Assembly: GCA_945900015.1 (NCBI GenBank)
Contig: CAMDJC010000004.1
Location: forward strand, 8,679 to 72,678
Direction: 5' to 3'
Origin: an uncultured Odoribacter sp.
Lineage (GTDB): Bacteria; Bacteroidota; Bacteroidia; Bacteroidales; Marinifilaceae
DNA length: 64,000 nucleotides
Shown piece after piece: positions 29,758-33,736 of this stretch. A program made the position numbers and the translations under genes. A model generated the notes under the pieces. It saw only the letters and a program-made list of their open reading frames with translations, was not told the DNA's origin and made no database searches. Each line of letters begins with the position of its first letter. The first letter of the stretch is position 1.

Positions 29758-31989
29758 TTACATTTTAAATAGGTCTGCTATATTTATACCCAACGTACCC
29801 ACCACTTCTATTCCACGTTGTGGAATAACAGATGAATCCGTAGCCCCATTTTTAGCTTTCAAATTCAATAAATTGTCCAATCCCAGCGTGAAACGCACCC
29901 CTCTCGGAAAACGAGCAGACAAATTCAAATCAATGGAAGTATTGGCATAATAAGGAGTGCGAGTATATACACCCTCCTCATCTTTACTCCAAACATCCAC
30001 CTTGGAAGACCAACGCCCATTCAAGGCTACAGAGGTCTTCACCTTTCCATACTGCCGGGCATAATTTGTTGTAAATGTCAAGCTGTGAGGCCGAAATACA
30101 GAGGTATTATATCCACCATCCGTTTTGTCATCAGGATTTACATAAGAATAGGAACCGTTGAATGTAAATCCACAATCCAAACGTACCTGCCCCATAACGT
30201 CAATACCATATTTCCTACTACTTTCATGATTAAAATATTTCTGAGCATTGGTTCCGTCATCCGCTTCATAATATCCTAAATAGATCTCGTTTTCATATTT
30301 TGTACAATAACCTGATACAGAACCATTAAATACCCCTTTGGTATATTCAAGAGACAATGTCCCCTGATGACTTTTTTCAGGTTTTAAATCCGGATTTCCA
30401 TAAATCATAAAACCAAAACCTCCCATTTGATAGGAGGCATACAACTCTTTTAAAGTCGGCAAACGAAAACCCATACCATACCCACCTCGTAAAGCAAAAT
30501 CACCTAAACGATAAAGCATAGAGATTTTCGGACTGGCATGAAAGCCATAATCAGAATGACAGTCTGTACGAACACCGGCAACCAAACTGAACTGTTTGGC
30601 TATTTTCCATTCTTCTTGTAAATACAATACATAATTCTGAAACTTATACTCCAAATTTGCCTCTTTATCAAACCAATAGTGCTTCATCCGTTGTGTATAA
30701 ACTTCCAATCCTGCAGTCAAAATATGTTTTTCATTCAGTTTACCAGAATAGTTCAATCGTACATTATTGGTAAAATCCTCCATCGTCTTCCTGTCAGGAG
30801 CATCATCAGCATATATTTCATGCTTACTATAATCATCAAGCATATAACTCAACGTCAAAGCATGATTAGTATTCAAGATATAGGTCAGTTTCGGATTTAA
30901 TGAAAATGTTTCGTTCCGATTTTGAACGCCCTCACTTTCATAAGGGTCCTGCAAATTATTACGATAATAACTACCAGCTAATTCAGCTTTCAAATTATCT
31001 GTAAATGAATACCCTAAACGCTCGCAGACAGACCAGGCATCATAACCCAACACTTGAGATGTTTTTTTATCAGCGGTGTCACGAATAATTACTCCGTCCT
31101 TATTTGTTTCTGTAATTTGTCCCTCCTCATCTTGTACTGTATAAGGATCTCGTTTACGATAAGATACTGATGTTAAAGAGGAAAAACGACTCAATTTTGT
31201 ACCGACTGAAGCAGCGTACTTCATTTCATTTTTATTACCCCAACGGGCTGTTACGTCCGCCGTTAACGGGCGATCTGCATTTTTTGTAATGATATTGACC
31301 ACCCCTCCCATCGCCTGTGCTCCATAAAGAGTAGACATCGCTCCTTTGACGACCTCTATACGGGCAATATTATCAATATCAATACGGTCAAAATCTATAT
31401 TACCATTTGCTCCTTCCCCTCCGATGCGCTCTCCGTCAATTAAAAACAATACATATCCGCCGGCAGCTCCCTGAAACTTCAACTCCGGCAAATTAGAACC
31501 ATGCGCAACACCAAATTGCAAACCAGGCAAAGCAAATTCCAATAAGTTCTGAAAATCGATCGGATTTATCTGCTCTATTTCCCGCTGGGAAATCACGCGA
31601 GTCAATACCGGAGACTCTTTTAAGGGTTTCGGTGTACGAGTACCCGTTATTACAACCTCATCCATGGAATTACGAGCCTCTTGCAGCCGAATTGTCACCA
31701 CTGCACTTTCATCACCATTCCACGTATATTCCTGTGTCTTATAACCGACAAAGCTAATACGCAAAACTTGACTGCCGAATTTACGGAGAGCTATGGCAAA
31801 CTCGCCTTGTGCATTAGTTCCAGCTCCGATGGTTGTACCTTTTACCCAAACAGAAGCACCCGGTAAGGGCGCTCCTGCTTCATCCAATACTACTCCCCTA
31901 ATTGTACAAACAACAACAGGAGCCGTTTCTTCTTCCGCCCATACAGGCAAAGCCAACAGGACGAACACAAACCATAGTATCTTCTGCAT
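29758..31989 (-). CDS. hmuR: TonB-dependent heme receptor with N-terminal carboxypeptidase-regulatory-like domain
   Basis: DEVVITGTRT TonB box; IARIEVVKGAMSTLYGAQAMGGVVNIIT plug; FRLPTLKELY. Confidence 0.85.
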   Translation of the reverse strand: MQKILWFVFVLLALPVWAEEETAPVVVCTIRGVVLDEAGAPLPGASVWVKGTTIGAGTNAQGEFAIALRKFGSQVLRISFVGYKTQEYTWNGDESAVVTIRLQEARNSMDEVVITGTRTPKPLKESPVLTRVISQREIEQINPIDFQNLLEFALPGLQFGVAHGSNLPELKFQGAAGGYVLFLIDGERIGGEGANGNIDFDRIDIDNIARIEVVKGAMSTLYGAQAMGGVVNIITKNADRPLTADVTARWGNKNEMKYAASVGTKLSRFSSLTSVSYRKRDPYTVQDEEGQITETNKDGVIIRDTADKKTSQVLGYDAWSVCERLGYSFTDNLKAELAGSYYRNNLQDPYESEGVQNRNETFSLNPKLTYILNTNHALTLSYMLDDYSKHEIYADDAPDRKTMEDFTNNVRLNYSGKLNEKHILTAGLEVYTQRMKHYWFDKEANLEYKFQNYVLYLQEEWKIAKQFSLVAGVRTDCHSDYGFHASPKISMLYRLGDFALRGGYGMGFRLPTLKELYASYQMGGFGFMIYGNPDLKPEKSHQGTLSLEYTKGVFNGSVSGYCTKYENEIYLGYYEADDGTNAQKYFNHESSRKYGIDVMGQVRLDCGFTFNGSYSYVNPDDKTDGGYNTSVFRPHSLTFTTNYARQYGKVKTSVALNGRWSSKVDVWSKDEEGVYTRTPYYANTSIDLNLSARFPRGVRFTLGLDNLLNLKAKNGATDSSVIPQRGIEVVGTLGINIADLFKM

Positions 31990-32017
31990 AAATATTATAA
32001 GAATGGGTTGTAACTAT

Positions 32018-33052
32018 TTATTTCACTTCTCCATAATAAAACTTGGCAGCTGTTTTTCCTCCATAAGTATAGGCTGTAAATTTCATCTTCCACACCTTAC
32101 CATCCACTTTCACAACAAATACATTATCATTCAATGTGTACGTATACGGAGGCATTGTTCCTGTAGGAGTTGCAGTCACCCAACCGCCTAATTCCTTATT
32201 CAACTTCACATCCTGAAAACCGACATATCCCAATTGCATATTAGTCATATCAGCCATTACAGAACCATCCGTATCTGCAACCATTTCACTTTCTGCAGGA
32301 AGATTTGTAGTATTTACCGCATCCAAATCTGTTGTTGTCATTTTTTTGACCAAGCCGCTATTTGTCCGGATATCATATTTATGTATTGCAATATCCCAAT
32401 CCAATGCCGACTCTTCAGCTGCATCAACACCATATACATAATTATTGGCTACAGTTGCCGAATAATTTGCAGTAATATCCATTGGCATAGCACCGGGACG
32501 CAATTTACACTCCAAAGCAAGCGCTTCCCCTTTAGCTGTACCAATCGTACCATCAACAGTCAACTTGTAGATAATAGAACCACCCTTACCATCTTCAACT
32601 ATATTATCTGTTGCTGTTCCTGTCAACTTCCATACATTTCCCTCTTTGATTGCCTTAGAATGAGTTTTCACAGTAAAAGGAGTCGGTTTTCCAGAAGTCC
32701 CCGGCATAGACATCACCAAATCAGACAAAATAATCTCCACACTGTCGGCAGAAATACGATTGATAATCATTGGTTGCTCATCAATTGAAACTATCGTTGC
32801 AAACATCCCAGTCCCTTTCAAAGGCCCTTTATACAATCCGGTTACAGCACCTTCCTCTTTCTTAATTGCCAATTTCTTTACCTCACCTGTCTCAAAATTA
32901 AAATAAGACCATGCGCCATATTCATGAGCCTCTACCGTTTTTTCAGTATAAGCACCATCATATTTACCACCATCCTCCTCATCATCCGAACAAGCTGTAA
33001 ATGCCACTCCCAGCATCATCCAAGCCACTAAAAATAAATTTGTCTTTTTCAT
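32018..33052 (-). CDS. hmuY: HmuY family lipoprotein with internal insertion
   Basis: Lipobox FTAC; WSYFNFETG, DWDIAIHKYDIRTNSG, WKMKFTAY motifs; first gene of the operon. Confidence 0.85.
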   Translation of the reverse strand: MKKTNLFLVAWMMLGVAFTACSDDEEDGGKYDGAYTEKTVEAHEYGAWSYFNFETGEVKKLAIKKEEGAVTGLYKGPLKGTGMFATIVSIDEQPMIINRISADSVEIILSDLVMSMPGTSGKPTPFTVKTHSKAIKEGNVWKLTGTATDNIVEDGKGGSIIYKLTVDGTIGTAKGEALALECKLRPGAMPMDITANYSATVANNYVYGVDAAEESALDWDIAIHKYDIRTNSGLVKKMTTTDLDAVNTTNLPAESEMVADTDGSVMADMTNMQLGYVGFQDVKLNKELGGWVTATPTGTMPPYTYTLNDNVFVVKVDGKVWKMKFTAYTYGGKTAAKFYYGEVK

Positions 33053-33224: not shown

Positions 33225-33232
33225 TACTTTTG
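33225..33232 (+). promoter_or_regulatory. -7 box (TACTTTTG) for the riboswitch transcript
   Basis: TAnnTTTG a few nt before riboswitch P1. Confidence 0.65.
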
Positions 33233-33236
33233 CCCA

Positions 33237-33416
33237 TGTACTGGTTTTCCTATTGTCATTCGGCAAGGGAAATAAAAGGGAATCAGGTGCAAATCCTGAA
33301 CAGGCCCCGCTGCTGTGAACCTCAATAGAGTTTCAGGGCAATACTCCTGCCACTGTCTTCATTTAACAAGACGGGAAGGCGCCCGAAACGAAGTAAGTCA
33401 GAAGACCTGCCGTACA
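33237..33416 (+). ncRNA. Cobalamin (AdoCbl) riboswitch
   Basis: AAAAGGGAATCAGGTGCAAATCCTGAACAG-CCCCGCTGCTGTGAA, GCCACTG, GGGAAGGC, and B12-box AGTCAGAAGACCTGCC; P1 TGTAC/GTACA. Confidence 0.92.
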
Positions 33417-33623
33417 AGCAAATGTCTGCACTCTCGTGGATTTAGAGGGAGACGACTGCGCATATATGTTTACTGTACTGTGAAAAACACCGGAGGTGGA
33501 ATTAATGTATACAAGGACATAATTATGTGGCCATGATTCCTATGATACATTCCTTTCATTTGAAGGATCCGCAAGTCGCATCCTGCCGGTGTTTTCTTTT
33601 TTTGTCCTTATTAAAGAAGAGAT

Positions 33624-33656
33624 AAAAAAAGTCACAGGTCGGCTAAAACCTGTGAC
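33624..33656 (-). terminator. Intrinsic terminator
   Basis: GTCACAGG-N10-CCTGTGAC followed by T7 on the minus strand. Confidence 0.8.
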
Positions 33657-33705
33657 ATTGCAACTATAAATATTAATCAATAAAACGTTCTCATTTCTGA
33701 CATTA

Positions 33706-33736
33706 CAAAGATAGGGGCTAAATACAACCTGTACAA
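33706..33736 (-). promoter_or_regulatory. sigmaA promoter TTG-20nt-TATCTTTG downstream of nadD
   Basis: -7 at 33706-13, -33 TTG at 33734-36. Confidence 0.6.

Follow-up and report, generated by a model that had tools for sequence, protein, structure and literature searches.

What does a cobalamin (B12) riboswitch control when no gene follows it? The question is raised by a locus in a 64,000-nucleotide (nt) stretch of the genome of an uncultured Odoribacter species (the window). An initial annotation, made from the sequence alone, had flagged an approximately 115-nt multibranched element in the output region of a riboswitch and had read it either as an effector RNA domain or as the mRNA of a micropeptide repressed by fold-back pairing. 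Our comparative analysis suggests that the element (33484–33603) belongs to a stand-alone RNA of ~365 nt, which probably consists of its own promoter, a cobalamin aptamer, a kissing-loop hairpin (P13), a single-stranded seed, and a three-way junction as the 3' end. We consider that this unit is best read as a riboswitch-gated small RNA (sRNA) that acts in trans as an antisense, and assign to this reading a probability of about 0.7. The logic would resemble that of the EutX/Rli55 RNAs, with the effect exerted by base pairing. Within such an RNA, the flagged element would serve as terminator and scaffold and might also carry a second seed, while the main seed adjoins it on the 5' side. A search of the literature returned no description of this RNA, nor of any Odoribacter riboswitch sRNA.

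A cobalamin riboswitch without a regulated gene

Nine cobalamin riboswitches are present in the genome that contains the window. An open reading frame (ORF) begins within ~35–125 nt after eight of them, and these ORFs correspond to ribonucleotide reductase, transporters, cobalamin-synthesis genes, and surface lipoproteins. Only the riboswitch studied here has none: no plus-strand ORF lies downstream, and the next genes are convergent. To follow the element in related bacteria, a covariance model built from 17 copies was run against 20 Odoribacter genomes and against 77 others, drawn from 22 further genera of the same family. One copy was found in 19 of the 20 Odoribacter genomes, and two copies in the 4.39-Mb complete genome G005; the 77 genomes of other genera contained none. 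Pattern matches in the betaproteobacteria Sphaerotilus and Rhodoferax both fail the covariance model and are due to chance.

Every homologue has an RF00174 aptamer directly upstream, with scores of 93–113 bits, and 181 nt past the aptamer were recovered in most genomes of the genus. A same-strand gene follows the unit in only 4 of 19 species, while 15 have none. We conclude that the post-aptamer region is a conserved ORF-less RNA module and not a gene leader. The module has the features of a trans-acting sRNA, namely, a TAnnTTTG promoter box, a terminator, no conserved ORF, and a conserved accessible seed matched by conserved complementary sites at the start regions of unlinked genes. From the position of the promoter box, we infer that transcription would start at approximately 33238–33242.

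An invariant linker is complementary to the start regions of mutA and kamD

Apart from the aptamer, no part of the RNA is as well conserved as the linker that joins P13 to P1, (C)CUGCAC-UAUAUAUUUACUGUACUGU; its core is invariant in 20 copies. The linker is predicted to be largely single-stranded, with a mean unpaired probability of 0.71 vs 0.39 for the whole RNA.

Simple k-mer searches for targets of the linker were uninformative, since the genome contains 377 perfect 9-mer matches, and 14-mer matches with one mismatch were about as frequent as matches to a reversed-pattern control. Two genes, mutA and kamD, are singled out only by gapped or conserved matches. The first, mutA, was reached via a 14-mer search; it codes for the small subunit of methylmalonyl-CoA mutase, is followed by mutB, and is present in 20/20 genomes. 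Its 5' untranslated region (UTR), ACAGUUACAGUUAAAUAUAUAAAUUAUGGCAG, is identical or nearly so in all 19 genomes where it could be read and, except for two bulges of 1 nt each, is complementary to the linker. With the CUGC/GCAG pairing included, the duplex spans positions −27 to +7 of the mutA mRNA. Duplex energies range from −19 to −25 kcal/mol (z = −4 to −6.4), and at most one of 300 shuffled sequences (0–1/300) performed as well in each of the 17/17 species. When the gapped pattern ACAGTN{0,1}ACAGTN{0,2}AAATATA was used, only the sRNA (in antisense orientation) and the mutA UTR were matched in each genome of the genus, while the reversed pattern gave zero matches in 97 genomes. Gapped-pattern matches in two genomes of other genera (G075 and G103) are unrelated chance occurrences.

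The second gene, kamD, was revealed by local alignment of the linker complement with the whole genome. The best non-self match was the kamD start region, with a score of 29 compared to a background of 10.5 (standard deviation 2.2). The gene encodes the alpha subunit of lysine 5,6-aminomutase and is present in 10 of the 20 genomes. The matched site is the 20-nt spacer in front of kamD, which is complementary to the linker in seven of eight species (−20 to −25 kcal/mol, z = −3.4 to −6.7), though the matching register differs by species, being ACAGUACAGUA in some and ACAGUAAAUAUAUA in others. In the genome of the window, the site (C2:72171–72212, minus strand) occupies an intercistronic position right after the stop codon of an upstream gene of 474 amino acids (aa), and regulation would therefore act within a polycistronic lysine-fermentation mRNA. 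Other 11-mer matches in the genus were scattered and lay within coding regions. A paralogue-like site (C47:5688) and the nuoH start (C3:58775) were also examined as targets and dropped.

The complementarities and their conservation are direct observations. They make trans-acting antisense regulation of mutA (and kamD) quite likely, and identify the invariant linker, not the multibranched fold, as the best-supported effector. The suggestion of an effector RNA domain in the initial annotation thus holds insofar as a conserved ORF-less module exists, while the fold that prompted it appears to be a terminator and scaffold in the first place.

A sister genus carries the same complementarity on a different terminator

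The mutA UTR motif is also present in all eight genomes of a sister genus (g12), which lacks the junction. A scan of three of these genomes with RF00174 revealed one ORF-less cobalamin riboswitch in each. Downstream of the riboswitch come, in this order, CCUGCACUUGUUAUUU and a plain terminator hairpin, the loop of which (15–18 nt) carries ACUGUAACUGU or ACUGUAGCUG, a bulge-free complement of the mutA UTR sequence ACAGUUACAGU. Using an exact pattern, the unit was found in five of the eight genomes (the sister-genus loci are L203, L204, L209, and L215–L219). Behind a gene-less B12 aptamer, an anti-mutA sequence is thus maintained in two distinct 3' architectures, which is the strongest argument for the complementarity being functional. 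The comparison also shows that, in Odoribacter, a terminator module has been elaborated into the three-way junction, a form specific to this genus.

The flagged element is a covarying three-way junction that would terminate the RNA

The coordinates of the unit are collected in Table 1. The multibranched element proposed in the initial annotation proved to be real: it is a conserved, covarying three-way junction. The folding energy of a 129-nt stretch containing it is −37 kcal/mol, while shuffled sequences gave −27 ± 3.3 kcal/mol (z = −3.07; 1 of 200 shuffles as good). RNAalifold, applied to a plain MAFFT alignment of 17 copies, detected compensatory changes in 10 of 25 pairs. In an alignment of 20 copies, both sides had changed in 21 of 38 pairs and 89% of cells were paired, a level reached by 0/500 shuffles; sliding the pairing partners lowered pairing to 42–53%. 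The conservation with covariation makes the fold more than a chance one. The homologues also allowed covariation to be set against codon-level conservation, a check that the initial annotation had recommended, and substitutions were found to follow base-pairing, not codons.

Table 1. Features of the riboswitch RNA unit; positions are those of the window.
Feature	Position	Strand	Details
Putative Bacteroidota-type −7 promoter box, TACTTTTG (TAnnTTTG)	33225..33232	+	perfect TAnnTTTG at the same place in 18/18 aligned copies
Cobalamin riboswitch aptamer, RF00174	33224..33428	+	102.3 bits, E = 1.8e-24; Rfam gathering threshold 31.5
P13 hairpin: basal GCA/UGC helix, internal loop, two helices of 4–5 base pairs (bp), 9-nt loop L13	33418..33459	+	same fold in 17/18 copies, covarying stems
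Candidate seed 1, single-stranded linker CUGCGCAUAUAUGUUUACUGUACUGU	33456..33481	+	invariant core at 33463–33481, UAUAUAUUUACUGUACUGU
P1 5' strand AAAACACCGG, also 5' half of the putative terminator stem	33484..33493	+	pairs with 33586–33595 (10 bp); 100% of cells paired
Long arm P2	33494..33561	+	P2a 33494–501/33554–61; P2b 33504–10/33545–51; P2c 33514–20/33533–41
Apical loop, candidate seed 2; conserved motif AUGUGGCC (UGUGGCCAU at 33526–34)	33521..33534	+	unpaired probability 0.74
P3 hairpin, GGAUCCG-loop-CGCAUCC	33564..33584	+	95% of cells paired; conserved C-C mismatch
P1 3' strand CCGGUGUUUU and U-run, putative intrinsic terminator and RNA 3' end	33586..33603	+	GC-rich stem, then T-rich run (at least 4 consecutive T) in all copies

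Comparison of the copies refined the helices that had been drawn from a single sequence. A closing stem had been placed at 33482–96/33582–96. The ten base pairs of P1 within it stand, with double changes at two pairs (e.g., A-U to G-C and C-G to U-A in one species), while the extra AGG/CCT pairs belong by comparison to the base of P2a. The predicted AATGTAT/ATACATT pairing corresponds to helix P2b, and a further hairpin, P3, is present at 33564–33584. Changes on both sides were observed in 7/8 pairs of P2a, 5/6 of P2b, and 6/7 of P2c, and copies folded individually adopt the same architecture. The perfect palindrome ACATAATTATGT is present in the window, but it is confined to this lineage; the fold conserved at its place is the P2c stem, in which CAU/AUG and AGGA/UUCC close a 12-nt loop (11–13 nt across copies) that contains AUGUGGCC. 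This motif is found in all aligned copies but two. The stem sequence of P3 is nearly invariant, while its loop (5–7 nt) varies freely. The earlier impression that the element matches no known RNA family was borne out as well: no Rfam family was found for the junction or the linker even at E ≤ 10, the best hit being BTnc231, with 17 bits on the opposite strand.

The structure and its conservation are observed directly, and the junction is selected for its structure. It is almost certainly a conserved structured terminator domain. The U-run TTTTCTTTTTTT starts directly past the closing stem and reaches 33603; the terminator core is CACCGG/CCGGUG plus UUUUCUUUUUUU, and the arrangement of a GC-rich stem followed by a U-run is kept in all copies. 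In place of the short loop (3–8 nt) of an intrinsic terminator, the stem encloses a branched insert of ~92 nt, which is why a consensus terminator scan did not call the junction. The closing helix and the U-run would terminate the RNA, and the arms would form a stable 3' scaffold that displays the accessible apical loop. A protein partner or a tertiary role may possibly account for the junction nucleotides and for the P3 stem, including its C-C mismatch.

The apical loop may be a second seed

The sequence UGUGGCCA of the apical loop can form 8–9 bp with UAUGGCCACA at the start codon of mmdA, which codes for the alpha subunit of methylmalonyl-CoA decarboxylase, an enzyme of the same pathway as the mutase. 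In mmdA, ATGGCCAC(A) is retained in 16 of 17 species. G018 stands alone in two respects: its RNA has no loop motif, and its mmdA starts with ATGATAACA, with no GGCCAC. A role of the loop as a second seed against mmdA is tentative and, in our opinion, somewhat doubtful. Pairing of the loop GUGGC with an invariant GCCAC of the aptamer was also considered; it amounts to 5 bp only and was judged to be due to chance.

A model of B12 control

Under the trans-acting sRNA reading, the linker would pair with the mutA mRNA of the mutAB operon over positions −27 to +7 and, where kamD is present, with the kamD start region, blocking translation in both cases, while UGUGGCCA of the apical loop may pair with the mmdA start codon region. 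Without B12, the full-length RNA would be made and its targets repressed. With B12, the ligand-stabilized aptamer/P13 would stop transcription at the U/A-rich tract (UAUAUAUUU) that overlaps the seed, or would otherwise inactivate the RNA. As a result, B12-dependent pathways would be translated only when the cofactor is available. The products of mutA and kamD, the two well-supported targets, both need adenosyl-B12, which suggests this direction of regulation, i.e., repression by the ligand-free RNA and relief by B12. The polarity fits that of cobalamin riboswitches in general, which are usually OFF switches, with genes being switched off by B12.

Gating by premature termination, which is proposed here by analogy, comes close to an even bet. 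Loop L13 of the P13 hairpin contains GGAUU (33438–42), which, as read from the sequence only, is complementary to AAUCC (33292–96) in aptamer loop L5. An L5–L13 kissing loop is a family feature of cobalamin riboswitches, and the complementarity makes the hairpin P13/L13. Its conserved basal GCA/UGC helix is followed by AC-UUAUAUAUUU. A U/A-rich tract, C(U)UU(G/A)UAU, is located 8–25 nt past P13 in several other riboswitches of the same genome (C1:17524, C22:1188, C1:156930, C10:2293, C29:5701, and C41:21737); its sequence is similar to that of the 5' half of the seed, and it could be a feature shared by their expression platforms. Similar tracts are found past P13 in the sister genus as well. 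The occurrence of these tracts makes B12-dependent termination within the seed the preferred mechanism. Candidates for an antiterminator or a seed-sequestering helix (e.g., GUACUG/CGGUGU, GAAGGCGCC/GGUGUUUUC, and aptamer CUGGU/ACCGG) were inspected; they are weak, wobble-rich, or U-rich, and none was convincing. The idea that the linker mimics a strand of aptamer P1 was rejected, because P1 covaries while the linker is invariant.

A number of observations weigh against the trans-acting sRNA reading or parts of it. The seed is AU-rich, and by simple duplex energy kamD ranks only 11th among 3546 crude start regions; moreover, the gene is limited to half of the genomes, and G018 has no kamD site. 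The pairing of the loop with mmdA may be as short as 8 bp, coding constraint could explain the conservation of the mmdA codons, and the co-loss was seen once. A role in termination leaves a covarying three-way junction with a sequence-invariant P3 unexplained. There is no clean terminator between the aptamer and the seed, AC-UUAUAUAUUU being a poor U-tract, and an inspection of all conserved complementary column runs in the full-length alignment revealed no conserved antiterminator or seed-sequestering helix. Given the poor U-tract and the lack of a conserved alternative pairing, the B12 gating step is a guess.

Alternative explanations

One more observation that counts against the trans-acting sRNA reading, the presence of B12-uptake-type genes on the same strand in four species, at the same time supports a different explanation. 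The junction could be a purely cis-acting, B12-controlled terminator for such genes, or could control antisense read-through into the convergent minus-strand RNA, queH, and nadD, with the complementarity to mutA and kamD being irrelevant. The genes in question code for BtuF-like proteins (PF01497) in G012, G009, and G018 (loci L010, L016, and L017) and for a DUF4465 protein in G007 (L014). At L014 and L017, no minus-strand unit lies in between, and cis read-through regulation would be possible there. Further, the element is placed where the terminators of other riboswitches sit, copy 2 in G005 lies ahead of another riboswitch, one with a metE-like gene, and synteny of the convergent minus-strand unit extends to at least 13 genomes. 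Nevertheless, the unit has no same-strand gene in 15 of 19 species, a minus-strand terminator and convergent genes follow within 20–40 nt, and the conserved antiterminator that was sought is lacking. A cis-acting terminator also leaves unexplained the invariant linker, the unique genome-wide complementarity to mutA, and the same seed on a different terminator in the sister genus. We therefore consider it unlikely.

Slightly less likely still, the junction would be a second sensor (a tandem aptamer with P1 as the terminator stem) or a protein-binding decoy, as in EutX, with the pairing of the linker secondary. A three-way junction with conserved junction nucleotides (UUUGAAGG and CCUG), an invariant P3 stem, a conserved C-C mismatch, and a free loop do resemble an aptamer or a protein site more than a plain terminator. 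At the same time, there is no Rfam match at E ≤ 10, ANTAR-type paired hexaloops are absent, and no conserved partner gene is found nearby. The junction is also limited to one genus, while in the sister genus the same arrangement is built with a plain hairpin.

An independent sRNA made from an internal promoter beside a decaying riboswitch is very unlikely. The −7 box of such a promoter would be TATATTTA in the linker, where the invariant TATAT(A/G)TTTA matches TAnnTTTG at seven of eight positions; however, the diagnostic final G is an A in all copies, while the upstream box is perfect in every copy. Far from decaying, the aptamer is under strong selection in all species, as its scores attest, and a start in the linker would remove the mutA-pairing part of the seed.

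Finally, the fold-back-repressed mRNA for the 18-aa peptide (M)KNTGGGINVYKDIIMWP envisaged in the initial annotation can practically be discarded: the GTG-started ORF (33480–33536) does exist in the window, with its start within the closing stem, but the start codon is found in 6 of 20 copies, the frames are 1–41 aa long, and conservation of residues is limited to KNTG/KTPG, which the P1 stem encodes, in line with substitutions that track base-pairing rather than codons.

Genomic neighborhood

The strong minus-strand terminator that faces the U-run of the riboswitch RNA (33631–33656) is followed by convergent nadD-like, gmk, and yicC-like genes. Upstream synteny varies among species, while a downstream convergent block, comprising a small minus-strand unit, queH, and nadD, is common to most of them. 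The usual convergent neighbor is queH (PF02677, E = 3.5e-62; e.g., L004, 1852–2418, minus strand), the gene for a B12-independent epoxyqueuosine reductase; nadD comes next. In the genome of the window, queH is missing at this place, and nadD abuts the small unit.

The minus-strand unit (33618–33715) is itself sRNA-like and convergent to the riboswitch RNA. It consists of a TAnnTTTG box TATCTTTG (on the plus strand, CAAAGATA, ~33703–10), a conserved single-stranded stretch of ~45 nt, AACGUUUUAUUGAUUAAUAUUUAUAGUUG, and a 10-bp terminator hairpin (33656–33631) with a U-run. It is kept in at least 13 Odoribacter genomes and adjoins the riboswitch RNA even where a btuF-like gene separates the unit from queH. 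Searches returned no Rfam match and, in its own genome, no paralogue or clear target; no complementarity of the minus-strand RNA to the riboswitch RNA or to any obvious target was found.

On the other side, a divergent operon (29758–33052, minus strand) contains genes for an HmuY-like lipoprotein of 344 aa and a TonB-dependent receptor of 743 aa. The operon, which lacks a riboswitch of its own, and the riboswitch RNA have a 170-nt promoter region in common. An HmuY-like gene is found upstream in G007, too. The second copy in G005 (L019/L042, ~2,452,200–2,452,360) is a diverged riboswitch-seed-junction unit without the AUGUGGCC loop motif. It lies just upstream of another cobalamin riboswitch, which has its own TAnnTTTG box and precedes a gene for a cobalamin-independent methionine-synthase-like (metE-like) protein.

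Relation to known riboswitch RNAs

The closest parallel is provided by EutX of Enterococcus faecalis and Rli55 of Listeria monocytogenes, in which adenosylcobalamin stabilizes the last aptamer hairpin as a terminator, so that the effector module is not made (PMC5821096). Like them, the Odoribacter RNA contains a stand-alone, ORF-less cobalamin riboswitch with its own promoter, and its effector, located downstream, would be present only in the long form. In EutX/Rli55 the long form inhibits expression of a B12-dependent pathway and B12 relieves the inhibition, as proposed here for the Odoribacter RNA. The effectors differ: EutX/Rli55 carry a dual-hairpin sponge for the ANTAR protein EutV, while the Odoribacter RNA has one or more antisense seeds and a three-way-junction terminator. 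EutX/Rli55 belong to Bacillota and to eut, and their B12-dependent shortening is known; the Odoribacter RNA belongs to Bacteroidota and to mutAB, kamD, and mmdA. By the definition of the ANTAR motif in PMC5821096 and in established knowledge, the substrate of EutV consists of two adjacent hexaloop hairpins. In the Odoribacter junction, the P3 loop is variable (5–7 nt) and the P2c loop measures 11–13 nt. Since it lacks an ANTAR substrate, has another kind of effector, and comes from another phylum, the Odoribacter RNA is not a member of the EutX family.

The S-adenosylmethionine (SAM) riboswitch RNAs SreA and SreB of Listeria reportedly pair in trans with an mRNA of the same metabolic area. Base pairing in trans is also the mode of action of a SAM-I riboswitch/sRNA of Desulfovibrio vulgaris (bioRxiv 10.1101/803072). 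These RNAs share with the Odoribacter one a riboswitch-containing molecule and, as proposed here, pairing in trans with mRNA. They are, however, terminated leaders of real operons with dual cis/trans function, whereas the Odoribacter RNA is gene-less in most species. Furthermore, its seed lies downstream of the aptamer, and the ligand would switch trans activity off rather than create it. AspocR of Listeria, as far as the paper that cites it describes it (PMC11575231), is an antisense RNA controlled by a B12 riboswitch, with the B12-dependent pathway on only when B12 is present. It resembles the Odoribacter RNA in that a cobalamin riboswitch governs a non-coding antisense RNA and differs, by the same account, in being cis-encoded and overlapping pocR; the Odoribacter targets are unlinked loci on other contigs, reached by a short seed.

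An ordinary RF00174 expression platform has the aptamer, the L5–L13 hairpin, and a downstream GC-rich stem with a U-run in common with the Odoribacter RNA. The latter differs in the absence of a regulated ORF and of a recognizable antiterminator, and in that its terminator stem encloses ~90 nt of conserved, covarying sequence in place of a short loop. The Bacteroides BTnc sRNAs (Rfam 15; GibS, MasB) are similar in their TAnnTTTG promoter, intrinsic terminator, and accessible seed directed at AU-rich start regions, and show no match in sequence or structure, the score of BTnc231 falling far below the gathering score of 80. To our knowledge, none of the BTnc sRNAs carries a riboswitch, and the switching-on of B12-dependent enzymes by B12 is known only for eut and pdu of Firmicutes, through EutX/Rli55 and AspocR.

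Implications

In another member of Bacteroidales, Xylanibacter ruminicola, B12 raises the levels of mutA, mutB, and some mmd transcripts; the mechanism is left unexplained there, and no riboswitch is located nearby (PMC11575231). The effect is of the kind expected of a trans-acting riboswitch sRNA, and the Odoribacter RNA, if it acts as proposed, would provide a testable answer to the question raised in that work. We put forward, as a still speculative possibility, that gut bacteria of the family Marinifilaceae (Odoribacter and its sister genus) have in common a class of sRNAs with a B12 riboswitch, which would constitute a trans-acting regulon. With the linker seed and, in Odoribacter, the second seed on the apical loop of the junction, such sRNAs would prevent methylmalonyl-CoA mutase and lysine 5,6-aminomutase, as well as the linked methylmalonyl-CoA decarboxylase, from being translated as long as B12 is lacking. 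Propionate and butyrate fermentation would thereby be coupled to B12, and sRNAs of this kind would be the missing mechanism of the B12 induction of mutAB and mmd in other Bacteroidales.

If the proposal is true, this would be the first base-pairing riboswitch-gated sRNA described in Bacteroidota, and “orphan” riboswitches in general would be worth screening for seeds against cofactor-dependent enzymes. Methylmalonyl-CoA mutase leads from succinate to propionate and lysine 5,6-aminomutase from lysine to butyrate; the short-chain-fatty-acid output of a health-associated commensal genus would thus be tied directly to the supply of B12.

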